This document shows positions 10,851 through 62,334 of a stretch of 64,000 nt of DNA, piece by piece. The stretch's first letter is position 1; each line of letters opens with the position of its first letter. Position numbers and translations under genes: made by a program. Source of the DNA: Catajapyx aquilonaris (taxonomy: Eukaryota); the NCBI GenBank assembly GCA_000934665.2, contig JYFJ02000902.1, positions 1 to 64,000 on the forward strand, read 5' to 3'. The notes beneath the pieces are model-generated. The model saw only the letters and a list, made by a program, of their open reading frames with translations, ran no database searches and had not been told where the DNA came from.

Positions 10851-13319
10851 GAGGCTTCGTCGTTGGCCAGACGCACCCTCCTGCCGGGGCTTGAGATCCG
10901 CAACCTGGCCGATGGCTCTCCGACGGTGGTTGTCTGCTGCGGAGGGGATGGCCACTCGTCGTTATCCTGGCCAAAGGGAACCCACTTTGGCCCCCTCCTG
11001 GCCCCCAGGGTGTTTCTCATGCCTCCGGAGATCACCTTCCCCATCAGGGTGTTTCAGCGCAACAAGGGGAAGCCAGCCCTCTACCTGGACACCACCAGTG
11101 AGGACAAGTGCAACTGGATGAGTCTGGTGGCTCCTGCGAGAGTTCCTAGCGAGCAGAACCTCATCTGCTACCAGGTGGTTTATTATATTATGTTAACAGT
11201 ATTACCGGCGCTTATTGCAGGGTTCGTTCGGGGTGAACCAGGCACTGATTCAATATTATAATTTACAGCTACGAGATGCAATCTACTATTCGACAACCCG
11301 GGAGTTGGTTCCTGGAGAGGAGCTGCGTGTTTGGTATTCGTCCGACTATGCTGCCAGGATGGGCATGTGTGGGGCTGCCCCTGGGTTCAGCACCAGCAGG
11401 CCCAACTTGCCAGAGCCCTATCCAGACCACAACTACAGGAAAGACACTGCCTTGCGTCGGCCTGCTGCGCCCGATACGCACTTCAGTTATTGGTCTCCGA
11501 GGTTTCCCAAGGAGGGTCCGCAAGTGATACTGGTTTCTCGTGTGGGATCAAGGACGAGGCTTCATCGAGGAGAGGTGGATCTCCAGACCCTGGAGTCTCT
11601 CTGGGCAAAACTGGAAGAGGGACAGGCCCCATCTGCTGCCCTTGAGAAGGCCTTGGGGTTGGCCCCAGTCAAAAGAACCAGGTCGAACTCTGGGAAGAAG
11701 ATCCCATCACCTCCAGAGGGGAAGCCTCCCCTTCCAAAAGTGGGGTGTTTGGACGACCATCAGGTGATGCCCGCTGTGTCACGCAAGCAACAGCAAATGG
11801 AACCACCTCCGGACACTCCTGATCCACCAACCACAGGGCAAACGGTGCTCCCTGCAGTTATGTTGATAAAGACAGAGACGCCCATGGAAAAGTTGCAGAG
11901 GCAGTACATGTGCGACCTCTGTGGCCAGAACTACAGCAGTGCCTACAGTCTAAAGATACACATGCAAATTCATGGTACGATTTCCCAACCTTCCCACCGT
12001 AATATTGTTACTAATAAATTAGTGAATGGCCTGCTGACACCGGAATGGTTTGTTGTGCGACAGGCAGCAATATTTTGTGACTTGCAGTTGGATTTTACCT
12101 TGTACGGTGCCAAGAAACTTCGCCAACCACATGTACTACTAAGAGCACCTAATTCTACTGAAACATACTTTAGACTGCACTAGTACGTAAATGGGTTTGG
12201 ACGTTAGACCATTAACAGTAATTTTCACGCACTTTAATTGTTATTATTTCAGCTGGAACGAAGCGATACGAGTGCCCAGTGTGTGCCAAGAGGTTTCATC
12301 GCAAGGACTTGCTGCAAGAACACCGCAGTGTGCATCAGGAAGCTCAGGTAATTGTGTCATATGCATGCCCCTAACATCCCATTGTATGCATTTGTTGCTG
12401 CCAGCCATTTTAAGGGAGGCCCACATTGTTAGTGTTATTTTAAAAGAGTGTTAAAGGTATGAATCATCACATGTTAATTGTCATTTCTTCCATCAGATCC
12501 CTTGCCCCGAGTGCGGAAAAAAAGTGAAGACGCGCAAGTCCCTCCACAACCACCTCCTGCTCCACAAGGACAAGGCAGAGTCCCACCGCCACTTGTGCCC
12601 CCACTGCCAACGCGCCTTCGTCCAGAAAGGCAACCTCCGCAAGCACGTCCGTGCCTCCCACCCGCCTCCTGGGCAGCCCAAGGGAGTGCTCTGCCCCCAC
12701 TGCGGGAAGAGGTTTGCATCCGAGGAGTACCTCCGCCTGCACACCCTCGGACACCACGACTCAACCTCCCAGCCGGCCCCTTCGATCCTCCACCAGTGCC
12801 CATCCTGCCCCAGGGCCTTCGTGAAGGCCCACCTCCTCCGTGCTCACTTGAGGCACCTGCATGGGGACTCCCTGTACGAGTGTCCCTACTGCCACCTGGC
12901 ACTCAGGCTGAGGGCGAGTCTCAGGCGGCATCTCGGACAGCACCACCAGGACCAAGCGCAGCAGTGGAAGGGAGAGGGCTTCATCGACGGGCTCAGGAGG
13001 ACAGTGCCAACCATGCCGACCCACAAACCACAACAGGGTGAGGGAGTGCCACCGTGCACACTTGAATCTGCAAAGTGTCAATTCTGCAATGTTGAATTAC
13101 TAGCCAAGGGATATGTAATATATCATTCCAGTTGAGGTTGTGCTGCAAGGAATTGGCGATGTGACGACGGCACCTGCTGAGGCTGTGGATCCGCCCCCAG
13201 AGCCACCGACCACAGCAGAGGCCTTCTTCCTCCCGGATGCAACCCAGGAGGTCCTCTACTACGTCTTGTCCAGCGACATTGCCGGAGAGGAAGTGGCAGC
13301 CGCAGTGGTGCAGCAGTGA
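10851..13319 (+). CDS. PR/SET-domain C2H2 zinc-finger protein (PRDM10/15-like); 5' exon(s) around 10.0-10.3 kb unresolved
   Basis: Phase-consistent exons 10851-11174, 11269-11974, 12253-12347, 12497-13037, 13132-13319. PR motifs FGP, CNWMSLVAPA...EQNLICYQ and IYYSTTRELVPGEELRVWY; seven CxxC...HxxxH fingers; AATAAA at ~13564. Confidence 0.85.
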
Positions 13320-16683: not shown

Positions 16684-18360
<1,677 letters not shown>

Positions 18361-22522: not shown

Positions 22523-24568
22523 ATGGCGCCGCGCAGAAAGTCGAAAATGGAACACTTGTCGTCTTCGTCGTCGTCTTCGTCTTCTTGTTCCCCCTCCGAG
22601 TCCACCGCGATGATATGTCTGGACGACAGGTTCGGCTCGTTCGAAGAGTTCCGTCGCCGCCTGGAGTCGTACCAGCAGACCAGGTTCGTCCAGTTCTGGC
22701 TGCGAGACTCGCGGACGATCAAGTCTGCTGAGAGGCGCTCCAGGAGGAAGACGGCCTCCGTGCAGCCGGCCCTGGTCTACTACGAGCTGAAGTACTGCTG
22801 CATACACGGAGGACAGGAGCTCAGGAAGAGGGGGAAGGGAATCAGGAAGTCGTCGTGAGTACCACCGCACGATACGCTCCGAACAACAATGGTTGAAATG
22901 TTCCCTTTTCTGCGGCTCTTTAGAACGTTCAAGCAGGGATGCGGTGCGTTCATATCTCTTCGGGCCTCGCTGGATGGAAGGCACCTGGTGGTTCGGGCCA
23001 TGAGCGAGTCGCACAACCACGAGGTCTCGCCGGAGCAGTTCCGGTCGCTTCCCCAGCAGCGTAGGTTGCCGGAGGAGTACAAGGAGAAGGCCAAGCACTT
23101 GATGGGAACCCAGCTGACCAACAAGCAGGTGCAGCAGATTATGCAGAAGGAGCTGGGGAAAGTAGTGCTTGTGAAGGACCTGCACAATGCCAGGATGGCG
23201 CTCAACCAGCGCTCGAAGAAGAACATCAATGCGGTCGCCATTGCGCTCCGGAAGCGATACGATGCAACCGTGCACTTGTTGCATGATGGTGGCCAGTACA
23301 GGTGGGTTGTTCGGTTGTTGAGCTTTACCATTGTCACCACCTAATTCTCTGATTTCAGGTGCACGTACTTCCAGGACCAGAGAATGCGGAGACATTTCGA
23401 CGCATTTCCAGAGCTAGTTCGCATTGAGTGTGTGCTGAAGAGAGAAAGTTTGCAATGCATTTTGTGCATGGTCGAAGATGGATCAGGTCGGACCGAGCCA
23501 GTTGCAATTGCAATAATGCACTTTGATAACGCAATTGATTCCATCGACTGGTTTTTGAAGGAGTTTAAGTCGCTGAATGGGTCTGCGGCAAAGACAACGG
23601 CAGTGGCTTTCAGTCCTTACCTGGTCGCCCACAAAATTGTGCACAATCATTTTCCAAACGCTCAGCTCGTGTTCAATGAGACATACATTCAGGATGCTCT
23701 TGGTGCGTCTGGTGTGTGCCCTGACCTGATTAGGGACATATGCCATGCCAATTCTGAAACCGCTTATCTGGCAGCGTGGAATGCATTTCAGCTCAGAGGA
23801 TCGTCTGAAACTTTGCGGAAATGCGAGGAGTGGCGGAAAATCAACAACCAATGGAGATGCGGCGTGGTTTTTCGGGCAAGTTCGGAAACATGGTCCACCC
23901 TGGAAGAACTTCAAAAGCGCTTAGATTCCATTCCATCGCACAGCACTGCAGAGGACGTCAGTGAGCAAGTTGTTCATATTCTAGCAAAGTACAGAGCGGA
24001 ACGTGATAGTGAAGAGTTACCAGTTGCGAATGACGACCAGTATGCTGATGCACTAACACCATTTGCATACCGATTGGTTCGAGAGGAAATAGACGCTTCT
24101 GAGATGCCAATGGCAGGCAACACAACGCAATGTGAGTGTGAATTCCACAAGAACCTGCGACTCCCATGTCGCCACATGTTCGCTGCCCGATACCTTCATG
24201 GACTCAACCCGTACTCTGAGGACACATACGACGTGCGATGGACCCGTTCTTATTACATAGCAGCACGAGACGGCACCTTACCCGTTACCCCATCACAAAC
24301 GCTACAAATGGAGCTCCAAGTGACTTCAAAGGTGGCATTAACTGGAGACGATGCGAACACCGAGCAACTTCTGGGCTCCATTCGTCAAGTGTGGCAAGAA
24401 GATCTGGAGGTCATCGTTCAGGTCAACAGTGACGTGAATCATCCTGGCCCTTCCAGAGTGACAGCTGATGTTGTAGCTGACGATGACAATGTGGACATGT
24501 CGGAGTGCATTTTGGGGGCTGTTGGGGAGCCTGTCATTGTTGTTGCCAATAACACAGAAGTCGGCTGA
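22523..24568 (+). CDS. ZSWIM1/3-like protein derived from a MULE transposase (FAR1-type Zn finger, degenerate MULE domain, SWIM finger)
   Basis: Exons 22523-22854, 22924-23301, 23359-24568. N-terminal YCCIHGG...GCGAFI...HNH finger; MULE-like YFQDQRMRRHFDAFPELV; SWIM CECEFHKNLRLPCRH. Confidence 0.8.
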
Positions 24569-27201: not shown

Positions 27202-30200
27202 TTAATCCTCATCCTGAAACGTACGGAGGTCAATTTTATTTCATACGACGCTCAAGCCACAGACGCAACATTACCTGCACTTCTTGAGCTGGAAGAAGGT
27301 CAAAGGGCACCTCGACCTGAACAAGCTCGTCATCCTGCACCTCGGAGGCTCCTTCTCGCCCAGACTTGGCTTCAAAAATGTCATCGGGACTTTTGCTCCA
27401 GTGAAACAATTCCTCGTTGTACGTCTCCTGAAATATCATGTACCTGTAGTTTACTATCGAAACATGCGAATGCTCTTCATCCCCTCCACGTATGCTACTA
27501 ATAATTTCAGCCAGTGCAATTGCTTACATGAGTAGTTGCTGGAAAGAAAATGTGCACCACAGTACCTTAGGCTTCTGTCTTGCCCAGAAATACCATTCCT
27601 CAGCAGCCGTCTCGTCCGTGTCGAGAATGTACCCGTACTCGGGTTCTACGTGAAACTTGGTATTCAGGTTGCAAGTTTCGAGCGATTGGCATGCGATGGG
27701 CGAGTATTCCACTTGCGTAGCCAGGTGCTGCATCAATCGCCCTTTTCGCAACCCTTGGTTTGCCGGTGACCTTGTCTTGCTGGGAATCTTGGGGCAATCG
27801 ACATCCTCGTTAACTGGTGACTCTTTCAGATCTGACTGTTCGGACTGGACCCCTTGATCCTGCCACAATTCAGGCGACTTTGGAGTGTCAGGACTTATTA
27901 TTGTCCTGTCAGACTGCCGGGAGCCCCTCTCATCGCAGAGGCACGATTCCTGGCTGATCTCGTCCCTCCACTGCATTATGTGTGGGGGCGTACTTGGCAT
28001 ATCCAGGTGAGCTGGTGTTGGACTTCTTGACGTAGCCCTGCTTGGCGACCACTCGAATTTTGGAGTTATGCTCTGTGGATATTGAAAATGCGGTTTTACA
28101 GGCGGCGTTTCCAGATTTCTGGGGGTGGCAGGCGTCTGCGGTGATGACTTCTGCGACTCCTTCAGAGACACTGCCAAACTCGACGGGCTGCTGCCTGGCC
28201 TCCAAGGGACTATCTCGTATATGTCGTCATCTTCATCGTAATAGTCTTCATCGGGAATGAGGCACAGTGGCCGCCACCCAGGCCAGCACAGGTACTTGTC
28301 GAGAGGGCAGTTCCCTCTACTGCTCCCTAGGTCCTTCTCCACAAAATTCAAGCTCTCATCTCGGTCTGTTTGCAGCTGTTTGCTGCCTGGAATGTTGATC
28401 AAGGTCTGAGGACTCTCCTTCGGTGCGGGAGCATCCTTCTGGACCACCTCCACAGGTGTGGGTTTGGACGAGGCCCGCACTTGCTGCGGCGGGTCCCTGA
28501 TCATGAAGAGCGGCCTGAATCCCGGACTGCACAGGAATCCTCCTCCAGGCTGGTCCACTTCCTGGATGTCCATTGCTGCCAGGTCCCTCACCAAAGGCCG
28601 GGTTTTCCGCGTTGTGGGAGGTTTGGAACGATATCCCATGTCCGGAACTGCCTCCTGCGACTCTTCTTCCGACATGGTAGCTGTCCAGGTCTGGGATACT
28701 GCAGCATTTCAACATTGCGTTGAATAATTAAACTTGCCAAATTTTATCTAATAGGGTACCTGTTTGCCGTTTTCTGCCAGGGATGTTGATCAAGATCTGA
28801 GGACTCTCCTTCGGTGTGGCAGCATCCTTCTGGAACACCTCCACAGGTGTGCGTTTGGACGAGGCCCGCATTTGCGGCGGAGGGTCCCTGATCATGAAGA
28901 GCGGCCTGAATCCTGGACTGCACAGGAATCCTCCTCCAGGCTGGTCCACATCCTGGATGTCCATTTCCGCCATGTCGTTCACCAAAGGCTGGGTTTCCCG
29001 CGTCGTGCGCGTTTTCTTTTTCTCAAAGAGGACGTTTTCCCCCCCTAACGTAACACATTGCGTTGAATTATTAAACTTAAAAAATTTATCTAATAGGGTA
29101 CCTCTTTGCCTTTCGCTGCCTGGAATGTTGATCGAGATCTGGGGACTCTCCTTCGGCGTGGCAGGATCCTTCTGGACCACCTCCACAGGCGTGGGTTTGG
29201 ACGAGGCCCGCACTTTCGACGGAGGGTCCGTGATCATGAAGAGCGGCCTGAATCCCGGACTGCACAGGAATCCTCCCCCATCCTGGTCCACTTCCTGGAT
29301 GTCCATTGCCGTCAGGTCCCTCAGCAAAGGCTGGGTTTTCCACGTTGTGCCCGTTTTCTTTTTCTCAAAGAGGACGTTTTTCTCTGCTAACGTACGCCTT
29401 GACCTCTTGACCACGAATCTCACGGCTTTCGTTGGATCATCTGGATCAGAGGCAGGCGGCCCGTTCTCCAAACTTCCGGAATCCTGGCTGTCATATCCGC
29501 CGTCTTTGATCAGGTATATGGGCCGGAATCCTGGTGAGAGCAAACAATTTCCCCTTTCTCTTTTCCTTCTCTTCGGGTGTTCAACCTCCGGGAGAGCCTC
29601 CTCACCATACCTCAATTGACCGTCTGGGGACTGACAAGTGAGTGCAATTTGTTGACCATTAGTGTGTCTTAACAACTCGACTTTTGTCATTGAAAAGTGT
29701 CAGAATACTATCAGGGATGGCATAATCTGGGCCGTACCCGGCTCTGTTATATTTTATTGATAATTTTTCATTAAATGGTGCTTGCAGTCCCTGACAGTAT
29801 ATCAGGGAAAGGCCAATTTTGTGACTTACTACATAAGAATCAATGAAGTTTGACATACGACGCTTCTCTGATTTGGTCTCTTTAATGCACTTTTCCTCTC
29901 TGTCCAAGTCGTCCTCTGCCTTTTTGTCCGCCTTCTTCCCCTTGTGGTCCTTTGTGCCCCATGAAAAGAACCCATGTAGACACCCTTCTTCTCTTTCTTC
30001 TAGCATTTCTGCACTTCTCTGGAATCTGGGAACGTATGGCCCAAATAGGCGCTGGCCCTTCTGATGATCATCGCTTCCTGGAGCGTCCAACAAGGAACCT
30101 CTGCTGGGACTGGAGAGGGGATCGGACATGGCCTCTTGGTTCTGGTACAGAAGCTGGAGGCTCGAAGGATCGTGGACACGATTCTGCGCTTTGTTTGGGT

Positions 30201-33200
30201 TGCGTGTATGTCTCTCTTGGATCTCCACTGCTGCAGAAGTATTGGACTCATCCTCCTCTGGGATGGACCACGGCGACAGCTTCTTACCATTTTGCTGCTC
30301 TGCTGATAGCCAACTCAAGACCATGTTGGTCGACAGTGGTTCAGTCTGCTGCTTTATTGTGTGGCTCATCGTGTGAACCTCTTCGTTGCTCTCAGAAGTT
30401 TTCTCAGGTGGTGGTGATGGCATCTGGGGTGCTGGGAGCGGGTCTGGATTGACCGTGCAGTGGCAGGATCTGGACAACTTCTCAGAAGTGGACAATGCGC
30501 ATGGGTCACCCGAGCTCGGTGATGTGCTGCCATTAGTCTAAGTGAATCCAGCAGCAGTGTCAGTGCAATGCGTGGTTAACTACCATCTAACGCAGAAAGG
30601 GAAATTAACTAGTGGCCTTGAATAAAATCCATTCCGGAGACACGAGTTGGTCTCCTGCCCTAGCTGAGCAATGCATTTTCTGATTACACAAAATAATTAA
30701 TGAAGTTTGTACTGCCAAGATATATTATTCAAGGCCATGTTACATTTCTCCGTCCTGAGCTTGTGACATGCTACTGTGCAGAGTGGTGTGACATTCATAT
30801 GAGACATAATTATGCACAATCATAAAATTTGTGACAATGAGTGACGTTGGAACTTTTGAAACATTTCAATAAAATAAAAGTGGCCATGTGAATTGAGTTG
30901 ACAATAATTGTTTTTGCCCATTGTTAGTCACTCACCTTCACTTTGTTGCTCTCTGGACTCCCTTGTTCAGGCAACACTGCTGTCACTGTCGATCCTCTAG
31001 CATGCCTTACATCTTTAAACGACGGTACACTGTTGATAGATTCCTCTGGAACCATCCCTTTTGATGCTTTCGTTGATCTGTTAGGCATTGCATTAACCTG
31101 CACCACCTCTTTCCTAATTACAGTCGATGCATTAGTTGATCTGTTAGGCTTTGCTTTAACCTGCACCACCTCTGTCTTAATTACATCAGCGGTGCAGTGG
31201 TGCACCGGTGGAGCATGTTTGGGGGTCACAGTTTCTGCGCAAGTTTTGGGACTGACTGCTACAATGGGATTATCTGCACACTCTTCTCTCTGGCTTTTCA
31301 GTTGACTCTCTTCGGTGACGACAGTTTCTGCACAAACTTGATCGACCTGCTTGTCCTCACACTCTTCTGTCGGACCATTTATTATTCCAAACCCTGCACT
31401 AATCTTATCACTCCTGCTGGTTTCCCTGTTTGAGATAGTCCCTGACGATACTTTCATGAGTGAATCCATTGACCGACCTCCGGAGATGCTAGGCGACACT
31501 GTAAAAGCACTGGTGGAGCACGATCTGAGGTTGTCTCTTGATATAAATTCCACATGCGTTTCTGAGGGCGAAAGTTCAGATACATCATTTGACTCTTCCG
31601 CTGCCACTTCACTGCGCTCTTGCGAGACGGTGTTGAATGTGTTGGCCAGAGACGTATCTGAAGAGGTCATAAAGTCCACTCTGTATCTCAGAACGTGATC
31701 CTCCACAGAAGCAGCCTCTTCGTGATTGCTGGTGTCGTCAGGTTGCCTGGCAAATGAGAGAGTTTAGTCACAAAGGCCTAGCCATTCTATTTCCAAGATA
31801 TAGAGAGAGCAGATTCTTAGGCTATATAACGAATTAGGCTTGCACATACCAGACACACATTTATTGAATTTATCGCTTCAAAGAATTGAAAATGTTTTTA
31901 GCTAAAAATCTGCATGGTCTCGGTAGATATAACTAACCTTTCACTGCCCATGCGTGGCAGGGAAGGTTGCCATACTATGGAGGATTTGCTATGTGAACTT
32001 CCCAGCTCCTTAATTGAAGCAAGAGCCTGCGAGACCTCCTGGAAACCAAGTGTCTTTTCAGATGGTTCCTCGATGATATATGCTTTCTCAAAGGGTGACG
32101 GGGCTGCTGACGAGTCACACTTGAAGCTAATCAGAGTTTTTGTGGACGGATTGGTCTTCACCTGACAGTTCTTGCTGCTGTGACTGTGCCAGTCCCACAT
32201 GTAACTCATGTCGTCCTCCGGCTCTGGTGTCAATGGTCCGGTGATCAACTCTATGGGATCCCGGTCGGAAAGTTCTGCCAGCACAAGCTCTGACGACCTC
32301 TTTGTAGCACTGTCTGACTGGTATGCCGAGTCATCGGACGCGAAGGTAACCTTTGTGGCTCGCACCTCCTTCTCAATTTCAGATGTGGATGGCTTATTGG
32401 GCATGACTCCTGAATGTGGCTTTCTACGCAATATAGAGAATACCAATATCAATCAACCAAAGGTGTAGTATTATTATTATATCTAAGGTAAGGTGCTGGG
32501 TGGGTTGTTGGTACCAGGTAGTACCTTATTTTGGCTCTCTTGGATGAGCGTGACCTCTTATGGGATGGCACTTTAGCGACAATCTGAGCCGGTTGCACAG
32601 ACTTACGAGTACCCCCGTAGTCTGCCTTCTGGAAGTACTGGTAGTTGCTGGCTGCCACGTAATACTCTCCCATCTTTACTTCCTCAGGTCTGGTCAACCG
32701 CTTTCCATCCATATTGTACAATCTGCAATGGAAGTGTTTTGTCATCACAATGTTCACCTGTACGTCTTGAATGCATCATCACGATACTACTTGTTGGCAT
32801 ATCCCCTCTGGAAGATGACCCTGCCGGCAACTTGGTCCAGGATCCTCTCCATGAGCACGCAGGCCGCTGTGACGAGCGGTACTCGGTATGCCGGATGGTT
32901 TGGATCCCCATTCCGGTACACAAAGATGGCATTTTTCAGTGTATTCATCCCCGGCCCACCCGCCTTGTAAGGTCTGCTGCTCATCCACATGCGCTGCCGG
33001 ACATAGCACTTACCAAGTGCTTGGGGCTGCGGTGCAGGCATCTTGCCACCATGCTGTTTGCAGCAGACATCCTGCACAAAAAAGCATCCATTGTGACCAT
33101 TAATGTGCAATAACGTTTTGTACAAAAATATAGTAACAATAAAGCAAGGATACATTTTTACAACAAAATAATCAGCAACCAGAATGCAAAATGAAGCTTA

Positions 33201-34888
33201 TTGGTCGATTGACCTCTGTCCTCACTTTGCCCCCCGTTTAATTTCGGTGTGTGGTCGATTCAAGGTGCAAACCCTGCCAGGATATGACCTGTGCACGCGA
33301 TGGGCATGTCGAGGTCACAGGTCGGGCGACCCTTCGCTCCACAGAGGTGCACGCAACGATCGTATTTTGCGCTCTTTTCTCCAATCAAAATATATACATT
33401 TCTCTGTCTGTACAACAACAACAACAAATCAATTCCCACAACCCCGTCTTTTTCCAAGCTTTAAAAGCCTAAAACTAAGAAATTACTACAATAACAATAA
33501 CAAAGAGTATTTAGTGCTTGTTGTACTGTACATTGTACCAACGCAAATGAAGAAGAAAAAAATCTCTGATAACTTCATATATGAAATTCTGTACACAAGT
33601 TCATATTATGAAGTTTTTCTTTATTTTGATTTTTGCATAGTACAGTACAACTACTGGACCTTGTGAATAATAGATAAGTCTCACATACCTCTGTGGAGTA
33701 GTTACTACCAGGCTTGAAAGCTCGCTGGGTGACTTTTCCGACTTCATCTGCTTGCACATACCTGTCAGTTTGCACACACACAAAAATATAATTATATGTA
33801 AGACAAATTCGCAATCAGTGCAAAAAAAAATCACGGGAGGGAATCACGTGCGAGTGTTGTTTAAGCTGCCAGCAATATTAATATAGTGTGCACCGAGGCT
33901 TGCAAATTTTCGCACCTTTGATCGATGGCATATTGCCCTTGGGGAGTTGTACACACCCCCTCACCCCCCGAACCACCTTTCCCGCCCCCTCCAGAACCAA
34001 TTATTTTTCCGCCAAATATCGATTCAGCGGCGCCAAACCCATTCATCATTATTTTGCAAACATTCTGCCAAGTTAGCCCAAGGAGTACTTTGTAATTACC
34101 GGTAATTGTTATGGATGAGTAACCTTTAGCCTGCTGTGCTACATTGCCCCCCGTCTATAAATCCGGGTGTCAGTTATTATGAAGGAACTACTGATGCCAA
34201 AATTTGGCAGAGTCTTTAATAATCAGCATGGCAGTGACAATCAAACAACTGTAATGCCCGCCGATTCACCACGTAGTACTATTCTTCGCGTATAGATGGC
34301 GCACATTCCCTCTGCACACTGCTGCAGGTCTTGCGAGAGAGAGCGAAACTATCAGTCCGGACAAACATCCTCTTTTAAAAGGAATATATGTTACTCGGAT
34401 TACAGTGTGTACACGTATGCAATGCGTGATTATTATAATTACGAGAAATAGGTCAATTCTGACCCTCCTATGATGGGCTTGAACCTTTCCCTTCCTGCTG
34501 CGACGTATCTGTGTCTGGCCTTCAGCTGCGTCAGACTCTCGACGGGTGTGCCGCCTTCAGGTGTGTATATCCTCTGGATAGGCTCGCTCAGCCTGGAGGT
34601 CAGCAAGGTCAGAAGCTGGTCAAATGTCCTGGGCTCCCTCTTGGACAGCACGACTCTCACCCCTGGGAAGTACACGTCCCCGTTGACATACACATGGATC
34701 CACTTGCTGTAGAGGCTCCGGCATGACCCATAGCGTGACCCATGGGCGGCCAGGGCAGACTCAGTTGACCCACCGGTCAAGCTGCTTGACGCCGCATCTG
34801 TCATGGTGCTGCCAGATGCACCTGTCGTGGTGCTTCCGGAAGCCTCCTCCGTGGGCTTATTGTCCTCCTCCTTCTTATTTCTTCCTCC
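27202..34888 (-). CDS. DCDC2-like doublecortin-domain protein (two DCX domains, long low-complexity middle, DCDC2-type C-terminus); start codon and some internal exon boundaries uncertain
   Basis: DCX1 KWIHVYVNGDVYFPG...YVAAGRERFK (~34464-34710). DCX2 IFVYRNGD...ANK|LYNMDG...YYVAAS (33071-32791 + 32722-32525). Terminal ASEVQDDELVQVEVPFDLLPAQEVQ|DED* recalls vertebrate DCDC2 AAEVQEDEDTQVEVPVDQRPAE; AATAAA at ~27095-27100. Confidence 0.75.
28375..29390 (-). repeat. Three tandem ~340-390-bp coding repeats inside the DCDC2-like gene
   Basis: Unit MDIQEVDQxGGGFLCSPGFRPLFMIxDPP...KESPQxxINIPG occurs three times (gagcggcctgaatcc at ~28508, 28900, 29241), with a duplicated intron-like AT-rich spacer. 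Confidence 0.9.
30613..30737. mobile_element. Small MITE-like element
   Basis: 13-bp perfect terminal inverted repeat TGGCCTTGAATAA / TTATTCAAGGCCA, within an intron. Confidence 0.45.
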
Positions 34889-36543
34889 TGAAAGACATTA
34901 TATTCGCACAACAATGACCTCCTGTATAGGCGGCCGATTAAAATAACGAAAGAGCTCAGTCGAATCTGCTGCTTGATTGGGCCAATTAGGCACTGCTTTG
35001 GTTGGACACATACCTGGCTTTTGATTTTCATCCATTATTCCACCGGTGCCTATTTCTTGTATACGGAAAAATTTCACGTGCGATTTTCAAGTGTGTTTTG
35101 CAACTTACTCTCCTTTTTTTCGTTGCATGGTAACAGGCTATATGGTCTTAATAATAATAATAGGCCTTCACGTGCACAAACAGTCAATGCAAATAAATGG
35201 AATAAAAAAATAAACATAACCCTATATACACTACACAATAATTCAGATATATACCCCGACCAACATTATTTAAAAGTGAAAAATTAATATTACTATCAAG
35301 TCCATAGCATGTTATAGGACCTATATACAAGGTCGCTTATAGTTTCGCAGTTTAGAGTGACGAGAGCGTGTTTCTAAGAAGGTCAAGAAAATTGTGCCAT
35401 ATTAGCGGGATTTTGCTTGTAAGTAGGCCTATGTCTATTTTTATGTAATCTGCCACTGAAAAAGAAAATCGATTGAAAATGACGAATCAGAATAGTGCAT
35501 GTCAATTGTGGGCGTGGACTAGCCAAAAATTGCGACACAATATGACTGTTGATTATTCTGTGGGATCATGCTTCGTAAACATGCACAGTCTGTCGAGCAT
35601 TCTTGACGCTACTGACTGCAGCAGTATGACCTACTATCGGTTTGCTATTTTTTTTGCACACGTTGTTTTCACACAAACATGCGTTTTTATTTTGTGAATA
35701 ACACTTCTAACGAACATTTTTGCAAAATGTTATTTTCTGATCAGCATTTTTATGACCCTTCCACAATTTGCATGTGAACTTGACCTACATTTTTTTTTGC
35801 GAGTTTGAGATGACTGTCGTGACCACGTGGTCCGTAACTTTTCAACGCCCACAGTACCAACTCTCCTATCCCGTATATCCTAAATAATTAAAGATGAGTG
35901 ACACCTCCCAACTCATAAAGGAAAATTGACTATGCAGAACTAACTCACCGTGATTGATAGATTTCGGGGATCGATGGGCAGTCATTGGATGGCCAAATAA
36001 GCTGCTTGTTGACAGGATCGAGCGCACAATATCGACTGCTGCCAAAGAGAAGCGAGGCCGCTCTTTTCTCAAGCCTCACCTTTTTCACCCCCTCCCGCCT
36101 CCTCTAGACCTTTTTTCTCTCTCTCTCTCTCTATTTCGTTAACCCTATAGTCTGAGGTTGCACGCAAATTCGCGATAAGACCTACAAAAAGACTGCAGGG
36201 GTGTCCAAAAGCCGACACGCCACTTATTAAAACGCACGGGAATTTAAGGGGGAAATAAATTGCGCCGTTCATTTTACACAACAATATAGGGCAATTAGCG
36301 ACGCAAACTCGTCTGGATAAAATTTCTGCAGCACATTTCGGCTGGAAAGTGGCCAGAAAAGTGTTATGTGAACAAATCCGGAAAATCTCTACTGAAAATG
36401 ACATTCAGCCTATAAAATCCAGCACTGCGTTTTTTTATTATTATTATTAAATTTTCAAGCATAATCTCCGCCAAAATTTAGACACTCGTCGCACTTGTCG
36501 CATCGATGTCAAGATTATTTTGGGCACACTTTGGTGACAATCA

Positions 36544-39500
36544 TCAGACAATGGTGGATTCTGGGACAGGGTCTGCTGGAGTGACGGGCCTGCTGTCCGA
36601 TCCTGATGCAATCATCTTACTGCTCTCCTTGCTCCAGGACATGGACATCTGGCGCTTCTTGATCGTCTCCTGGTAACGAATGTTCATGTACCTGGAAGAA
36701 TGAGAAGGTTCAAAAAAAAAGGAGAAGGATTATTTGGGTCAAGCTCCCATGTTCCAGGAAAACACGAGTCCAAATATAGGATAGCCTGTCTGCCGCACTC
36801 TATTCCCACGCTCCAAATTTTTGCGCAGTCAGCCACAGTTCCGCGAATTTAAAACGCCACCCAATTGCACCCATAAACTAATTCCTCAATTAATAAATGG
36901 TTATTCTACGTCAAAGCGTTGGGTTGCATCATGCCAGGATGAAAAATGATAAAAATGTGGCCAGCATACCCTCCAGGCACCTTCCTGAAGGCCTCGTTAC
37001 CCGCAGCGACGTAGTACTTGTTTGGCTTGAGCTGTTCGAGAGCGCATATCTTGGTACCGGACACGGGAGTGTACATCTTGACCAGGTTCTTGCTGGACCC
37101 TCCGGTGGACACCTTCTTGCTGACCATGGACAGAAGGTGCTTCAGGCTCTTCGGAGGCTTCTCCGCCGTCATGGACACGTCCACACCTGGAAAGTACCTG
37201 TCTCCGTTCAGGAACACGGTGATTCGCTTGGTCGACGGGTCCGGTATGCTGCCGGTACTGCTGGTGGTGCCGGTCGTCGACGTGGACGGAAGGATCGCGG
37301 ACACATCGGACGCCGCTGGTGTCTTTGGGCGGATGGTCCGCTGGGTCGGCCTGGCTGGCGTGGACGGTCGGACCATCGTCTTGTTGGGCTTCGTCGTCGT
37401 TGTCTTGGCGGGTGCCACCAGAGGTGTCGGTGTCGTGGACGTATCTGTCGGTGTCGTGTGCTCATCCGGTTGGAAAGTCGGGTCCGGCTCTTTTATTGGC
37501 TCGTGCACGATTGTCGTTTCGTACATGGGCGTCGACTGCACCTCGATTTCACATTCGGACGAGGACGACGGGTCTTCCGGGTACAGCACGTTCAGCTGCA
37601 GGGAGCTTCGCACCAGCTGAGGACGTGATGATCCGGCTGGTTTAAGCACAGGAGGCACGGGCGACACGGCTCCGGAAGTGTGAATCCGCACCCTATAATG
37701 GGCGTCACACAACAATTTATTATAAGTTGCAACAATATTAATATGCGCCTCTATACTAGAGCGGGACTCGTACTGTATGTAATACCTGCAGAGATAATCT
37801 GACGATGCTGCCTGCGTTGCGTTGGCGCAGCTGTGGTTGGGTATGGGCAGCACCCTTCCGTCCTTGGTGACCTCCAGGGTGACCAGCACCTTCCCGAAGG
37901 TCACGATCTCCCTGTCCGTGTCGAATCTCCTCACCAGCCCAGTCTTGAGGACCTCGTACTGCCCCACCTGCCCCTCCCGCTGGGTCAAAGGTCGCAGCTT
38001 CCCAGTGGCCGTGACCTCGAACCGTCCCACCACCTCCTCCCCTGGCTGCACCGGTTCCGCCTCGTCCAGGGGCGGGTACAGGACCAGCCCGTGGGTCATG
38101 TTGATCACCTTACCGCATCCGGTCACGTAGAACTTTCCGAGCAGTGCGTCTGGGATGTACTCTGTCCTGTCCTCGCTGTCCATCTGGTACAGGCGTCCGA
38201 ACCGATTGAACCCGACACGGGCCACCACCTTTCCCTTCATGTCCGGTTGGGGCTTGGCCAGCTGTGGCCTGGCCAGGGGCATCTGGGTCGCCTTCCCGTT
38301 CGAGGTCAGCATGAACCGTCCAAGCAGCGGAAGACTTCTGGCCGAAGACTGGACGTTCATGTACGACGTGATCAGGTACTCCCGAGTGATGGCCAGGTCG
38401 CGGATCGGGACAGGCAACGTCACATCCCGTTGGCTGTTATTATTGGTCCTGGTTTTGCTGCTGCTGTTGCTGTAAGACGAGGCCGTCTGCTTGGTCAGGT
38501 CGAGGTCACCCAGGGACAGGTTGGTCACGCTTCCGCTTCGGTTAATCTGGAAGCGACAGACCACACTGTCCCGAGCTCGTCGGATCAGGGTCGCGTCTGG
38601 ACACAGCTGGACCATCTGGAACTGACGGGTCACCTCGAAGCGGGCCAATGGCGGGTCATCTCTGATGGTAGTGGAAAATAATAAGACGATTGGTTCATTA
38701 TAACAAGTCGATGTGTGTATACCAAGAGCTAGTGGTGTACTATACCTGATGATGAACTGTCCTGTAGGACCGCTGTCGGACTTGTGCTTGTTGCCGAAGA
38801 TGCGTCGAACAAAGGTCTTGGCCCGCTTGGCGAAAGTGTCCGAGTCCTCCACCGGACACAGCCGGTACGCTGTACCGCTGGCTGCGATGGCGTAGTGACC
38901 GGTCAGGGCGGGCTGGTCCATCTGCGACAAGTCCAGGACCTTCCTGGACTCCGTGGGCACCACCTCCAGGTTAGAGGTCAGCATGAAGCGGCCAAGGTCG
39001 TGTCCGAACGGACACAGCTGGCACACTCTGGGCTGGAACTCGATGACGTCTCCGACGCACGACAGGTGGAAGATGCTCAGAACCGGACGGTCCGACGGAA
39101 GTGCGACGATGCAGGCGTCCTCGGTGACTCCGTACCGTCGGACGCAGACGTCGGTCTGTGACATGGCTGGGGACGGAAGCCGCGACGACGGCATCGTCTC
39201 CGAGACATGAAGACGCTTCGTGACGACCTCGCCGTCTTCTCGTAGAGTCAGAAGGCCAAGTACGTCGTCCGGTTCGGCACCGGGTTCCGTCCTTGGCACC
39301 AGTTCCCCGGAAGCTGTGTACATGTAGGTGCCGACGTACCTGCCGTCTTCCTTCGAGCGACGTCGTTTAATATCCAGCTCGTCGGTGGGCATCTCTCCGA
39401 CGCTTCCGTCGCGGTACAGTGTCACCCTCTTCAACATTCTCTCCGGGATCATGTAGTCGGAATGCATCAGATCCACGAAATGCAGGTCCTGGTCCACCCC

Positions 39501-40180
39501 GTACCGGCCGATGATGCTGCAGGTCTCACGAGGAATCGGGTGCGACTCCATGACGGAGTGGTCCAGGACCTGCCGGTGGTATATATACAGTACATACAGG
39601 TAAGCCATTGAACATGTGACAGTGTATATCAAAGACTGACCTTTCCCGACCTGGTGATCGAGAACCGTCCGATGGTACCCTCTGCATCGTTGGGCGTAGA
39701 CGCGTCATCCAGAAGGAACACCTGTCCTTCGCTGTTGAACCCATACGTGGTCATATGCCGCTGATGCGACTGGACCCGTCCGTCTGCGAACAGGTCGAAC
39801 TCTGCCAGCGTACCCTGAGGCACCTCGCTACCAGAGGTCATCCTAGTGACGGTACCGACGACGCCCATAGCGTACCGGCCCAGATGCAACGCCCTGTCCA
39901 TATCCTCAGCAGCGATGCGGCTGACCTCGGGACACTCTCCCAGACTGACCCGGTACAACCCGATAGATCCTGTCCGATCCAACCGACCGCAGACCAACCG
40001 GAACTCGACCTCGTTGGCCGGCATCTCCGTCACATGTCCGTCCAGCCCTATGGAGAATCGCCGGTACGGAGACAACGCCATGGCACTCGCCGATGCCTTC
40101 TTCTCTTCCGAAAGGTCACCGATGTCCCCCGAGTCCTGCGGTAGCTGCTGGGTAGTTGGATAATAGAGACTCGCTGCCAT
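36544..40180 (-). CDS. Beta-hairpin-repeat protein with Thr/Pro-rich linker and a C-terminal DCX domain (~1036 aa if all introns are spliced)
   Basis: Exons 40180-39641, 39569-38746, 38661-37786, 37692-36970, 36691-36544 sum to 3111 nt in frame. DCX: RITVFLNGDRYFPG...YYVAAGNEAFRKVPGGY. Confidence 0.75.
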
Positions 40181-40449: not shown

Positions 40450-43400
40450 TTATTTACCCAGTGACCCCCTACGAGTGCCGCCGCTGTTCCTAGTATCCGC
40501 TTTCATACCCAGGGCGGACCCCTGGGCGGACCCCCGACGAGGGCTGCTGGACACTCCACCAGAGTGCCTTCGCTCTTCCCTGCTGAGTCCTTGGATCGAA
40601 CCCTGGTTGGACCCGCGACGAGACCCGCCGTTGTTCTGCTTCCTCTCTCGTTCCTCCTGTTCCCTCTTCTTCCTCTCCTTCTCCTCCTTCTCCGCCTTCC
40701 TCATCTTACCACAACGACAGCATCTGTCCAGCTTGCGAAGACCCAACTTGTTCATGCTCTTTCCACCGGAACCACGACGCTGGAAAAAAAAAAAAAACAC
40801 GCAACAAATGGTCACGTCCTGAACCACATTTCATTAGCGTATAATTAACGCGTCGTTACCTCAGTAGGCTTTGCTGTCTGGGTTGGCGGTGGTCCTTCTC
40901 CGTACGGTACCTGCTCGAACTCTCGTTGGTACACGTTGCCAGCCACGTAGAAGCCGCCGGCACGAAGATCTCGAGCAGACTTCATCACTTCTCCCTCCAT
41001 CGTGTACAGTCTGTCGCGGGGAGATAGAAGAAGAAAAAAACACATTCGTAGCAAACGTCGTTACACTAGCCGGTACAATATAAATTAAAATGATGCATGT
41101 CAAAACTCACTTGTCGCAGAAGCCTTCCCTGGTGCCGTACAGCTTGGAGTTGACCTCCTCCATGACCTTATCCAGGTTTCGAAAGTCCTTGAGCGGTATG
41201 GTGCATCGGACGGCCGGTTGGAACCGGTCTCCGTTGCGATACAGGTAGATTGGCTGCGGCTGGAGCTCCTCAACCTTCTCCATGTACACGGAGCGGACAC
41301 CAGCCAGCGACGGGTGGGATACCTTGCCCTAATTAAGTATATTATGTAATAGGGTCATATACACTGACGGTACACACTTGACATGATGACATCGAGACAC
41401 TCACCGTCTGCGAGCCTCCCATCTGCGAGAGCTTCTGCTGCAGCATCTGCTTCCTGTGTATCTCGTCCTGTATGGCCCTGTACCCTCCCTGTACCGGCCT
41501 GAACCCTTCCGCTCCGGAAGCGACGTACACCTCCCTGGGCAGCAGCGTGGCCAGAGACGACACCTCCAGTCCATCGGCCGTGTACAGATGCTGTACGGGC
41601 AGTCCCATCCGGGCTGTCAGCAAGTCCAAAAGCTGCAGGAAGTTTCGAGGCTCCTGCTTGGACAACGGTACCCGTACCCCTGGCGAGTGCTGGTCCCCGC
41701 TTCGGTGCACCTGGACCCACTTGACGTCCGTGTTGGAGGCATCCTCTTGCATCCCGGAGCCTACCTTGGACATCTGCTCGGCCTGCATGGCCGCGGAGCT
41801 TCCAGGAGGACTGGTGACCACGATGGACACCCGCTCCTGGACCTGCTGCGACTGGGTGATGGCGGACATGGCTGCAGCTTCGGCTATCTCGTCCGCGGCC
41901 TTCTCACTCATTGTTTTATCCTTCATGGCCTTCTCACTCATTGTTCTGTCCTTCATAGCCTTCTCACTCATGGCCTTGTCCTTCATAGCCTTCTCACTCA
42001 TGGCCTTGTCGGCCAACATACCGGACTTGACGACGTCGCTCAGCAAGTCGCTCAGGGCCGTACCGGACGCAGGTGCGCCTTCTTGCGTCGGTGCTGCTGT
42101 CATGCGAGCCATGGCGTACTCGGGAGGTTCCACCATGTCTGCAACACAGAGCAAGAGTTAGGACACCAACAGGAACCAAGAAAAGCCCCTGAATGCCCGT
42201 GACCCTCCACACAAGAGAGGCATATGTGTGGCCCTGAACAGCCAGGATAACAGTGTCAAAAATACAGACGTGGACAGTAGGCTACAGGGTAGCGGGCACG
42301 TGCGTATACACTGTATTTGCACTTGTGAGCATGACCTACCCTCACTGGCCAGCACAGAAGAGCCGGAGCCACCACCAGCAGCGCTGGTTTGGATATTCCT
42401 CTTCGACCTCCCGACATCTTCGTCCAAGTACCTGAATCCAAGCTGACCGTCGAACTCTCCTTCGCTCTCGCCTTTCTGTAGGAGCATACAAGTTTACTAT
42501 AGAGATGACGACACTCTTACTTGAGAATAACATTTGGAAGCAGCAGTTGCAGTGTATGTCGGGATGAACACTACCGTACCTGCTGATCTTGACCAAGCCC
42601 TCTCTCGCGTTGGTCTGAGTCGGCCATGTCCTGCTTCAGTCTCTCGGCCGATTGCGCCGACATCCGTATGTCAGCCGACATCCACTTCTGTCCGTCGGAC
42701 GATTGTTGATTCAGCCTCTGGCCCGTATCCTGGCCACTCAGCCTCTGGCCCGTATCCTGGCCACTCAGCCTACTCTGGCCCGGATCCTGGCCACTCAGCC
42801 TCTCGGCCAATTCCTGTCGCTTCAGACGCTCGGCCGAATCCTGCCCCTTGAGCCTATCAGCCGAATCCTGCCCCTTCAGTCTATCGGACGAATCTTGCCC
42901 CTTGAGCCTATCAGCCGAATCCTGCCCCTTCAGTCTATCGGCTGAATCCTGCTTCAGTTTGTTGGCCTGTAGTTCCAGCGTCCGTTTATCGACCGCCGAC
43001 TCCAGTTCAGTGGACAGCAGCAGTCTCTGCTGAGGGGACTCCTGCTGGGCGGCCTCATCGACCCTTGCCCTTTCCAGGGAAGGAAGAGGACCCGTGTCCT
43101 GGTAGCCCGTACGCTGCTCCGAAGGGATCTTGACCACCCCTCGGGTGGACTCGTGCTGCTGGAGGAGTCTGGCGGTCCTGCTGGACTGTGCCGAAGCCAC
43201 GTTTGCGACAGTGGGCATCTGCGACGGAGGGAGGATGACCGAGGAGGTGATGACGGACTCGCTGGTCCTCTTGCTGCTGCTCCGAAGAGGTTGTTGCGAC
43301 GCAGCAGCAGCAGCAGGCCTCTGCTGTCCCTCTGCTGCGTTTGAAGAATATCCGACCCGGACGAACTCCGCCTCGTGCGTCTCCATCTTCAGCACCTCCG

Positions 43401-61149: not shown

Positions 61150-61656
61150 CTAATGTTCCTTGTAGCCAAACCGGACACTGCTTGCTTTCTCGGTGCTATC
61201 CCTGGCTACGTACACTATTAAAAAGTACAATTCAGCGATTGCAACAATTAGTGCGCTTGCAATTCCCAGTAGCAGCCTTACCCCCATGTCCAGTACTTGA
61301 CCCCAGATCAGAGCAGACCCATGAAATCCAAAAACAAAGGCAGCGGCAAGGGAAATAACAAACTGAACCACTGCCACCACCTGCTTGTTCATTGCTTTTA
61401 ACTGTGACCCTATACTTTCAGTGCCGCATGTTCTCCTGCGATACTGGTCCCGTAAGTGTGCTAAGCGCGCCTGCCAATGCGGGTTTGGGGCAGAAGGCGG
61501 TGCAGGGGTCAGCGCTGCAGGCAGTGTTATGGAAGATCCCAGTAAGGAAGCATGAAGAGGCGCAGGCAATCCAGACTTGCGGATGTCTCGCAATCTGGCT
61601 GCAGTCAGGGCTTCTGGCAGTGATGGACAACAAGGATTGACAAGTACGGCGGACAT
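61150..61656 (-). CDS. TMEM199: TMEM199/Vma12 V-ATPase assembly factor (168 aa from ATG 61656)
   Basis: LHASLLGSSITLP...PNPHWQARLAHLR...IGSQLKAMNKQVVAVVQFVISLAAAFVF...RLLLGIASALIVAIAELYF parallels remembered human LHELLEGSEIYLP...RNPELVARLEKIK...LGKQV...FIVTVVAAFV...VVGLAELYV; two C-terminal hydrophobic segments; AATAAA at ~61073-61078. Confidence 0.9.
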   Translation of the reverse strand: MSAVLVNPCCPSLPEALTAARLRDIRKSGLPAPLHASLLGSSITLPAALTPAPPSAPNPHWQARLAHLRDQYRRRTCGTESIGSQLKAMNKQVVAVVQFVISLAAAFVFGFHGSALIWGQVLDMGVRLLLGIASALIVAIAELYFLIVYVARDSTEKASSVRFGYKEH

Positions 61657-62334
61657 TATTTCTGCATTTGGTCCTCCAGTTGCGAGTAGTACCTGAAAGT
61701 TACACATTAGTCTTTTATTCTCCAGACAAAGTGTCCAGCTTTACCCTCTGAGCTGCAGCTCTTTGTCTCTGAATGCGTTGTCGACCCGGACCGATTTCTC
61801 TCCAGTGTCATGCAGAAATTTGTCCCACTCTTGTTCCCTCTGCACCCGCCTCTCGCCGAGTATGGCTTCCGTGTCTATCCGTGCGGAAGCAGCAATCTTC
61901 TGGGCCATGGACGAAGCCACTTGCAGGCAGGTAGATAACGGAGGTAGGTGGGCCTCGCTCAATGACGACAGCCGGTCCAGAAGCTGCCCCTCGCGAAGTT
62001 CAGTCACCCGCTCGAGCACTGCGAACAACCGCTCAACTTCACGCTCACCCCGCTTTTCCTGCAACAACAACAACAATTTACAACAGTCAACAACCACTGC
62101 CAAATCTCTACCAAACACATGTAAAATTAAATTAATCCGGCTGAATACTTGCCGGCCATTTGTACCTCAAATTCCTTTAGGAAATATGTGATTTCTCCGC
62201 TGAGGAACGGTCTGTGGTCGAACAGACGCGAATGTATCTCGCCAATATCTGCAAAACGCCACAACATGAAGGCTACAAAACTGGAACAAAACCACACCAA
62301 AAAAATAATACCAACCCTTGAAAATGGCGGCCAT
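61656..62334 (-). CDS. BLOC1S5: BLOC-1 subunit 5 (Muted), 150 aa, 4 exons
   Basis: Exons 62334-62316, 62248-62166, 62058-61745, 61692-61656 give MAAIFKDIGEIHSRLFDHRPFLSGEITYFLKEFEEKRGERE...EWDKFL...VDNAF...LRGYYSQLEDQMQK*, matching the Muted signature KDLGEIHSRLLDHRP...FVKEFEEKRG. Confidence 0.93.

Follow-up and report, generated by a model that had tools for sequence, protein, structure and literature searches.

Contig JYFJ02000902.1 of Catajapyx aquilonaris carries a spliced, protein-coding gene on the minus strand, at positions 40180-36970 of the window (the whole stretch of DNA that was analysed, 64 kb long), and its product joins a long region of short repeats to a doublecortin (DCX) domain. 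The repeat is real and uncatalogued, and a weak structural model predicts that it is a beta-hairpin module. We propose, with a probability of roughly 0.45, that the gene encodes a cytosolic DCX-family microtubule-associated protein whose N-terminal hairpins would form an open, beta-rich array, acting as an interaction scaffold that projects from the microtubule.

The gene is supported by its codon bias, by a long open frame (2.7 kb) and by a spliced contig. All of its exons and introns lie on the minus strand. Exon A (39641..40180, 180 codons) opens with an ATG at 40180, immediately preceded by an in-frame TAG, and carries hairpin units 1-6, the first of which begins near 40072. Exon B (38746..39569) carries units 7 to ~15 and is separated from exon A by intron 1 (39570..39640; 71 nt, GT..AG, GC 0.41), which we accepted because the two open frames join only through it. 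Intron 2 (38662..38745; 84 nt, in frame, GT..AG, GC 0.37) is confirmed by one spliced contig of sequencing run X5, with its joint at 38661/38746 and the intron ends reading CT..AC on the plus strand; this contig is the one among the run's seven small contigs that is spliced within the repeat region. Exon C (37786..38661) carries units ~16-24, including the six that AlphaFold models as hairpins, and is followed by a candidate intron 3 (37693..37785; 93 nt, in frame, GT..AG, GC 0.37), which is likely to be real. GC at third codon positions (GC3) is 0.77 in the coding exons versus a GC content of 0.37-0.41 in the introns. The spliced model comes to 989 aa, counted up to the donor of the DCX exon. 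The 1036-aa model of the initial annotation overlooks the in-frame 84-nt intron (38745-38662) shown by the spliced contig.

The repeat region spans 37653..40072 on the minus strand, ~760 aa after splicing, and follows the consensus hh-G-R-[FY]-x-h-T-x-x-G-x-V. It contains 13 strong and ~12 weaker units, each of ~27-29 aa, and has many hydrophobic residues, V and L among them, with a pI of 6.6. All ten motif examples quoted in the initial annotation are found in the minus-strand translation. Comparing residues 1-790 of the spliced model with 5000 residue shuffles, and using three patterns composed after inspecting the sequence, we found 13 occurrences of [GCA][RKQTH][FY].[VILMFY] (shuffle mean 0.59, maximum 5), 13 of [FY].[VILMFY].{3}G.[VLIA] (shuffle mean 0.32) and five of G[RK][FY].[VILMFY]T (shuffle mean 0.01); for each pattern, none of the 5000 shuffles reaches the observed count. 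The non-circular test is a profile HMM applied to a held-out exon. An HMM built from the 13 units of exons A and B gives seven matches in held-out exon C, at E=1.1e-10, and the reciprocal HMM, from the eight exon C units, detects both exon A (E=1.5e-4) and exon B (E=3e-3). As a control, among ~1600 further six-frame pieces from the window the best score is E ~1, and the repeat is confined to the present gene within the 64-kb window. Detection of the repeat is thus significant by both shuffling and the held-out HMM.

How many copies are counted depends on the stringency applied. By eye, and with weak units included, there are 25, 13 of them are strong, and 21 could be placed in a unit alignment (A1); the earlier figure of about 25 is thus acceptable, if on the generous side. 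Anchored units have a mean pairwise score of 0.27, versus -17.9 (sd 0.84) for random windows. At the DNA level the copies are fully diverged, as had been claimed: identity is 82% over 34 nt for the closest pair and 62-65% for the others, and there are no tandem arrays. The protein motif is nevertheless kept, which argues for old copies under selection and bears out the view that the repeat is maintained at the protein level only.

The repeating unit, as judged from the sequence, appears to be a single hairpin of ~27-29 aa. Individual units are between 18 and 56 aa long and irregularly spaced, and the linkers between them are very variable, polar or proline-rich, with no regular blade length. 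A six-hairpin super-repeat of ~145 aa had been suggested by a MAFFT alignment (A2) and by segment z-scores. When the order of the units was permuted, segment alignments were equal or better in six of six segment pairs, and we dropped the super-repeat because permuted units score equally well. Similarity at a separation of two units is 4.22 versus 0.33 +/- 2.2 (p ~0.05, one of eight separations examined), which hints weakly at a period of two hairpins. Such a period, if real, would be more in keeping with closed folds (a trefoil leaf or a propeller blade) than with an open array.

We modelled exon C with AlphaFold in order to examine the predicted hairpins. Using A2, which is a pseudo-alignment of the protein's own segments, AlphaFold gives a mean pLDDT of 55.9 and a pTM of 0.40, and places strand-turn-strand on all six motif units modelled. 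The 10-residue blocks that hold these hairpins average pLDDT 56-82, and values fall below 50 between units and at both ends. A single-sequence run of exon C also has strands on several motif units, at a pLDDT of 36.6 that makes the model unusable. Because the A2 model rests on the protein's own segments, its hairpins are without independent support. Thus, the beta-hairpin unit proposed in the initial annotation is recovered on each of the six units, but at low confidence and from an own-segment alignment, and the proposed solenoid is not borne out, as we obtained no confident fold and no PDB match to the model. Foldseek comparison of the A2 model with the PDB gives no match at E<=0.001, and neither Foldseek nor VIA returns a known fold that matches it.

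Searches for relatives of the repeat region were negative throughout. Word-indexed searches return no match at E<=0.001 among 8000 candidates of near length and none at E<=0.01 among 6035 longer candidates. phmmer, with a query that read through two in-frame introns, finds none at E<=0.001 among 1,835,955,588 representative proteins, the ESM Atlas yields no usable match, and 32 pattern matches in JGI metagenome contigs gave no confirmed case. In Pfam, seven pieces of the region searched at E<=10 return chance rows only (TonB_C at 0.017, L35p at 0.07-0.14 and EFHB at 0.24), so that the repeat is indeed unfamiliar, as it had been called. PDB profile searches return six rows at E 0.82-2.1 with A1, and a single chance row, ribosomal S26E at E 0.041, with A2.

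Behind the repeat region comes an S/T/P-rich linker of 135 aa (37233..37637, minus strand), recognised by composition, with 19% T, 16% P, 14% S and six [ST]P sites; the C-terminal 79 aa of the linker have a basic pI of 10. The DCX domain follows directly (36970..37232, minus strand) and passes Pfam PF03607 with 32.6 and 34.4 bits against a cut-off of 22. A PDB search returns 15 sequences at E<=1, and 13 of them are DCX, DCLK or DCDC2 chains that match residues ~768-867. Composition and Pfam thus agree with the initial annotation, which described a Thr/Pro stalk followed by one DCX domain. From the DCX domain, and from it only, we infer that the protein may bind microtubules. The suggested sperm or ciliary role is unsupported.

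The DCX domain is accompanied by others, contrary to the earlier picture of a lone DCX fusion. Four further DCX-like segments lie nearby on the same strand, making five in all between 32.4 and 42.2 kb. Upstream, a DCX pair (40848..42157, minus strand) belongs to the same gene or an adjacent one, and consists of one DCX at 41342-42157 and a second that is split into 41107-41289 and 40848-41054. Downstream, DCX exons lie at 32452..34897 (minus strand), with one DCX at 34439-34897 and one split into 32787-33197 and 32452-32775. The exon carrying the DCX domain of the repeat protein, exon D, ends at donor GG|GTATGC in phase 2, matching in position the donor that follows the DCX at 34439-34897; the phase of the exon D donor does not fit the obvious acceptor at 34888. 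The neighbouring DCX exons are possibly in the same transcript as the repeat region, and, going by the in-frame TAG ahead of its ATG, the repeat region may instead start a gene of its own. When the DCX exon at 34442-34897 was used as a query against the protein collection, which includes animal proteins, the only match was a fish DCDC2-like protein, and it has no repeat region.

With five DCX-like segments on one strand, the locus resembles mammalian DCDC1/DCDC5. FLJ46154/DCDC5 is described as DCX - ricin-like - DCX (PMC1550402, PMC3106376), and dynein and Rab8 are reported as binding partners of DCDC5 (PMC4756281). Like DCDC1/DCDC5, the locus would encode a cytosolic DCX-family protein, and its DCX-like segments flank a central non-DCX module of beta type. 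A DCX-pair gene directly upstream is likewise seen in mouse, where BAC26042 and FLJ46154 are given as 2 kb apart (PMC1550402). Unlike DCDC1/DCDC5, for which we compare by published description, the module here has ~760 aa and ~25 hairpins versus one ricin domain of ~130 aa, and it possibly belongs to its own gene. The condition set for refuting the initial annotation, a described family with a known DCX fusion, thus applies in part: FLJ46154/DCDC5 is a published DCX protein in which a beta-rich, lectin-like 'ricin' module sits between DCX domains, but our domain-level tests for ricin were negative.

This precedent raises the alternative that strongly diverged beta-trefoils of ricin, fascin or FGF type follow one another along the region, which would then be the DCDC5 'ricin domain' in an already described fusion. 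DCX domains on both sides of the repeat region and the hint of a two-hairpin period are consistent with it. The unit profile A1 matches the QxW hairpin of 30 actinobacterial ricin-B domains with an hhalign score of 15.6, above all 100 column shuffles (maximum 13.5), and the unit rf.vt.dG.V aligns with qW.hn.dG.i as aromatic-x-aliphatic-x3-Gly-x-aliphatic. The probability of this match is, however, 9.2%, and hairpins of the YD/RHS type give a comparable one (score 11.7 versus a shuffle maximum of 9.1; probability 5.5%, not significant), so that the resemblance is generic. The G-[RK]-[FY] motif may also echo the fascin/FGF trefoil signature, which would speak for trefoils. At the level of domains, the profile of these 30 actinobacterial ricin-B domains reaches hhalign probabilities of only 0.1-0.7%, whether it is aligned with exon A, B or C, with the whole 770-aa region or with A2, and no domain-level repeat was found. 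Ricin-type PF00652 has no Pfam match at E<=10 on the seven pieces, nor at E<=1 on whole ORFs, and no trefoil family at all appears at E<=10 on any of the pieces. PDB profile searches at E<=10 contain no fascin, FGF or ricin chain, and neither Foldseek nor VIA returns a trefoil, although both were given a weak model (pLDDT 55.9). The 40-aa threefold repeat, the cysteines and the QxW signature of the ricin-type trefoil are absent, and units are spaced at ~27-29 aa rather than the ~40 aa of a trefoil leaf. We therefore consider diverged trefoils unlikely.

Short hairpin units of 20-30 aa with the pattern aromatic-x-h-x-x-x-G-x-h are shared with choline-binding (CW_binding_1) and YD/RHS repeats, and the best A1 row in the PDB profile search is a pneumococcal choline-binding protein, at a non-significant E of 0.82. 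Those repeats are bacterial, extracellular and regularly spaced, unlike the irregular, cytosolic, animal repeat described here, and none of CW_binding_1, YD/RHS or MORN has a Pfam match at E<=10 in the seven pieces. The ~25 hairpins (~50 strands) might also close into one or two beta-propellers of an unrecognised type. DCX-EMAP-like architectures exist, and such propellers would parallel them. In favour of this, Foldseek ranks propellers highest (virginiamycin B lyase at E 2.5e-3, followed by TolB, PQQ, WD40 and designed propellers), RCC1 is among the nearest PDB profile rows at E 1.6-2.1, and a period of two hairpins would give four strands. Against this, the Foldseek rows have TM-scores of 0.10-0.20 and probabilities of at most 0.30, no propeller family is found in Pfam at E<=10, and the very variable, proline-rich or polar linkers make for irregular blade lengths; closed propellers thus seem quite improbable. 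It is also conceivable that the region is largely disordered and that its units work as short linear motifs for binding microtubules or tubulin, in the manner of tau/MAP2-type repeats; the whole protein would then lie along the lattice. A short repeat with a conserved basic and a conserved aromatic residue, variable linkers, low AlphaFold confidence and a DCX-family host would all fit. We nevertheless judge it very unlikely, as the alternating hydrophobics and glycine turn fit a hairpin, strands fall at motif units in both AlphaFold runs, and the hydrophobic-rich composition comes with a pI of 6.6 rather than a basic one. Finally, the lack of relatives in the protein, ESM Atlas and metagenome searches could be explained if the region had no maintained function, being fast-evolving or recently expanded filler or the product of a mis-joined gene model. 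The strong codon bias, the long open frame with its spliced transcript contig, and a protein motif kept across fully diverged DNA copies make this barely credible.

In the reading we prefer, that of an open hairpin array on a microtubule-associated protein, the DCX domain that closes the exon set C-terminally would tether the protein to the microtubule lattice, possibly helped by further DCX domains if the neighbouring exons share its transcript. The N-terminal 760 aa would form an array of ~22-26 independent beta-hairpin units, each predicted to have an aromatic and an aliphatic residue on one face, a glycine in the turn and an arginine or lysine before the first strand, with variable polar or proline-rich loops separating the units. 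A disordered, partly basic S/T/P-rich linker would come after the repeat region. The array would then be extended and open, a beta-rich scaffold standing out from the microtubule as an interaction platform, and it would correspond in architecture to the lectin-like module that mammalian DCDC1/DCDC5 carries between its DCX domains. A fuller version, which we hold as tentative and somewhat doubtful, is that the units constitute an undescribed animal beta-hairpin repeat family (~27 aa) in a new open array, solenoid-like or as beads on a string, tied by a phosphorylatable S/T/P linker to DCX domains; the resulting scaffold would be anchored on microtubules, and 1.84 billion representative proteins contain no detectable relative of it.

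To our knowledge, DCX-family proteins have been studied almost entirely through their DCX domains, and the role of the large non-DCX parts of DCDC1/DCDC5-type members is essentially unknown. The evidence presented here comes from one genome and is a lead rather than a discovery. A repetitive, uncatalogued hairpin module is a concrete object to express, to solve and to screen for binding, and it could, given orthologues, become the basis of a new repeat family or fold.

On the minus strand, two open frames (39629-40180, 183 aa; 36906-39632, 908 aa) are joined by a 71-nt GT..AG intron (39640-39570), and the ATG at 40180 is directly preceded by an in-frame TAG. GC dips inside the 908-aa frame flag two further in-frame segments. 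The 84-nt segment (38745-38662) is skipped by a contig of sequencing run X5, whose joint reads CT..AC on the plus strand and hence GT..AG on the minus strand. The 93-nt segment (37785-37693) is a candidate intron with GT..AG ends and a GC of 0.37, and is without RNA support. GC3 of the exons is 0.77 versus a GC of 0.37-0.41 in the introns. The spliced model comprises 989 aa up to the donor that follows the DCX domain, and removal of the first intron only leaves a two-exon model of 1067 aa. The 31-codon difference between the 1067-aa model and the 1036-aa protein of the initial annotation corresponds to the 93-nt intron; the annotation had therefore overlooked the 84-nt one.

Between 37653 and 40072 this gene encodes copies of a hairpin-like unit (consensus hh-G-R-[FY]-x-h-T-x-x-G-x-V), and the observation of the repeat is confirmed: all 10 motif examples quoted in the initial annotation were found in the minus-strand translation. 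Using 5000 shuffles of residues 1-790, we found three loose patterns to be enriched, with no shuffle reaching the observed count: [GCA][RKQTH][FY].[VILMFY] (13 seen, shuffle mean 0.59), [FY].[VILMFY].{3}G.[VLIA] (13 seen, mean 0.32) and G[RK][FY].[VILMFY]T (5 seen, mean 0.01). Since these patterns were composed with the sequence already in view, we added cross-validation by HMM. A model of 13 units from exons A (39641-40180) and B (38746-39569) matched the held-out exon C (37786-38661) at E=1.1e-10 with seven matches, and a model of eight exon C units matched exon A at E=1.5e-4 and exon B at E=3e-3; the best-scoring of the remaining six-frame pieces of the window, about 1600 in all, stood at E ~1, and the repeat profile had no other match in the window. 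The count is 13 strong units, 21 of sufficient quality for alignment (alignment A1) and 25 by eye. DNA identity between copies is 62-65%, apart from a best pair of 82% over 34 nt, and no tandem arrays are present at the DNA level in the repeat region. The repeat is therefore old and maintained at the protein level, as had been proposed.

Unit length varies between 18 and 56 aa, and the median is about 28. Alignments between segments of the protein were significant for segments A and D (z=8.0) and for C and E (z=5.3), and MAFFT aligned three segments across ~145 aa. The six-hairpin superunit of ~145 aa suggested by MAFFT was rejected: with unit order permuted in one partner, scores were equal or higher in six of six segment pairs, leaving the single unit as the only supportable repeating element. 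Among eight separations tested, similarity gave a single borderline signal, at separation 2 (4.22 versus 0.33 +/- 2.2, p ~0.05).

We compared the protein with known families. Pfam recognized DCX alone in the gene (32.6 and 34.4 bits versus a cut-off of 22), and seven pieces of the repeat region searched at E<=10 returned nothing credible. PDB sequence matches to DCX, DCLK and DCDC2 chains were restricted to the C-terminal domain, and PDB profile searches with A1 or with A2, which aligns segments of this protein with one another, gave chance-level rows (choline-binding protein, E 0.82; RCC1, 1.6-2.1; S26E, 0.041). Because passages of PMC1550402 and PMC3106376 describe a 'ricin' domain flanked by DCX domains in FLJ46154/DCDC5, we used 30 actinobacterial domains to make a ricin-B profile for comparison by hhalign. 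None of the three exons (A, B, C), the entire repeat region or A2 matched this profile, with probabilities of 0.1-0.7%. The single-unit profile aligned to the ricin-B QxW hairpin (rf.vt.dG.V to qW.hn.dG.i) with a score of 15.6 and a probability of 9.2%, exceeding every one of 100 shuffles of the columns (maximum 13.5), and to YD/RHS hairpins with a score of 11.7 (shuffle maximum 9.1, probability 5.5%). Since it aligns to both, the unit, judged from these profiles, bears a generic hairpin signature and not a family signature. Relatives of the repeat region were found neither by word-indexed searches nor by phmmer over 1.84 billion representatives (a protein collection that includes animal proteins), nor in the ESM Atlas or metagenome contigs.

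AlphaFold gave an unusable model for exon C alone (pLDDT 36.6). Supplied with A2, a 186-aa target reached pLDDT 55.9 and pTM 0.40, a weak model that depends on the repeat itself, as its input alignment came from the protein's own segments. Its six strand-turn-strand elements fall exactly on six motif units; unit-bearing blocks average pLDDT 56-82, and stretches below 50 lie between units and at both ends. We favor an open array for the 760-aa hairpin region, at a probability of roughly 0.45, because of the single repeating unit, the irregular spacing and the polar loops. Closure of the hairpins into trefoils appears unlikely by comparison, and closure into propellers is the least probable of the three arrangements; propellers form the top Foldseek rows for the A2-based model, at TM 0.10-0.20, and no PDB entry matched at E<=0.001 in that search.

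The DCX domain of the repeat gene shares the minus strand with four other DCX-like segments: 41342-42157 (E 1.2e-9), a split domain at 41107-41289 and 40848-41054 (second half E 0.002, first half by eye), 34439-34897 (E 2.6e-15), and a split domain at 32787-33197 and 32452-32775 (second half E 1e-4). A K/E/R/S-rich exon on this strand (about 40458-40781) ends in a TAA with AATAAA-like letters, ~270 bp upstream of the repeat-gene ATG, so that the repeat gene and the upstream DCX pair may be distinct genes. Pair and K/E/R/S-rich exon together occupy 40450-42157 and could equally form the 5' end of the repeat gene. The donor after the repeat gene's DCX (GG|GT, phase 2) matches in position the donor after the 34439-34897 DCX and is incompatible with the obvious acceptor at 34888. 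The repeat gene and its neighbouring DCX exons may be one, two or three genes. The arrangement resembles that of mouse BAC26042 and FLJ46154, which a passage of PMC1550402 places 2 kb apart. Summed contig depth of sequencing run X1 is 481 at 33974-34607 and 298 at 36510-37143 versus ~30 elsewhere, with plentiful loose ends at 34256-34325 and 36912-36944; these peaks adjoining DCX exons are probably dispersed repeat elements. Short coding tandem repeats lie at 41897-42007 (30 nt x 3.5, KAMSEKAMKD-type) and 42710-42952 (27 nt x 8.9, QDSADRLKG-type).

Elsewhere in the window, long minus-strand open frames at 27524-29699 contain a 342-nt tandem repeat (two copies, 87% matches) encoding a repeated ~114-aa segment with the motif GGGFLCSPGFRPLFMI; Pfam had no match in these frames. 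An X5 contig ends at 31937 and continues with the letters of 31732-31745, skipping a canonical minus-strand GT..AG intron (31746-31938), and the downstream low-complexity exons are therefore transcribed and spliced. A second X5 contig joins 45472 to 46643, with 3 nt ambiguous and no obvious GT..AG at the boundaries (flanks by eye). A minus-strand ORF at 16813-17322 encodes eEF1A domain III (Pfam 1.4e-38) with ~80% identity to mammalian eEF1A2 over 100 aa (aligned by eye), and scores slightly higher against mammalian than yeast eEF1A, a rough indication that the DNA comes from a non-vertebrate animal. The plus strand carries a PRDM-like gene at 11197-13135, in which C2H2 zinc fingers come after a PR/SET-like segment (PRDM2_PR, 3.6e-8), and a transposase-derived ORF at 23345-24568 with a ZSWIM1-3 RNaseH-like domain (2.1e-16). 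A minus-strand ORF at 61153-61740 contains a Vma12 domain, of a V-ATPase assembly factor (1.8e-14).

A passage of PMC4756281 that cites Kaplan and Reiner 2011 reports a function in cytokinesis for DCDC5, along with binding to dynein and Rab8. The interpretation in the initial annotation is partly supported; nothing spoke for the sperm or ciliary role it suggested. The gene is a variant of the multi-DCX DCDC1/5-like proteins, with a large repeat module in no family library searched. Anchoring to microtubules is established for the DCX family, and the DCX domain here would likewise anchor the protein on microtubules. The 135-aa S/T/P linker, with six [ST]P sites and a pI of 10 over its last 79 aa, would act as a flexible tether, probably phospho-regulated, and the 760-aa hairpin array may provide a beta-rich scaffold for partners.
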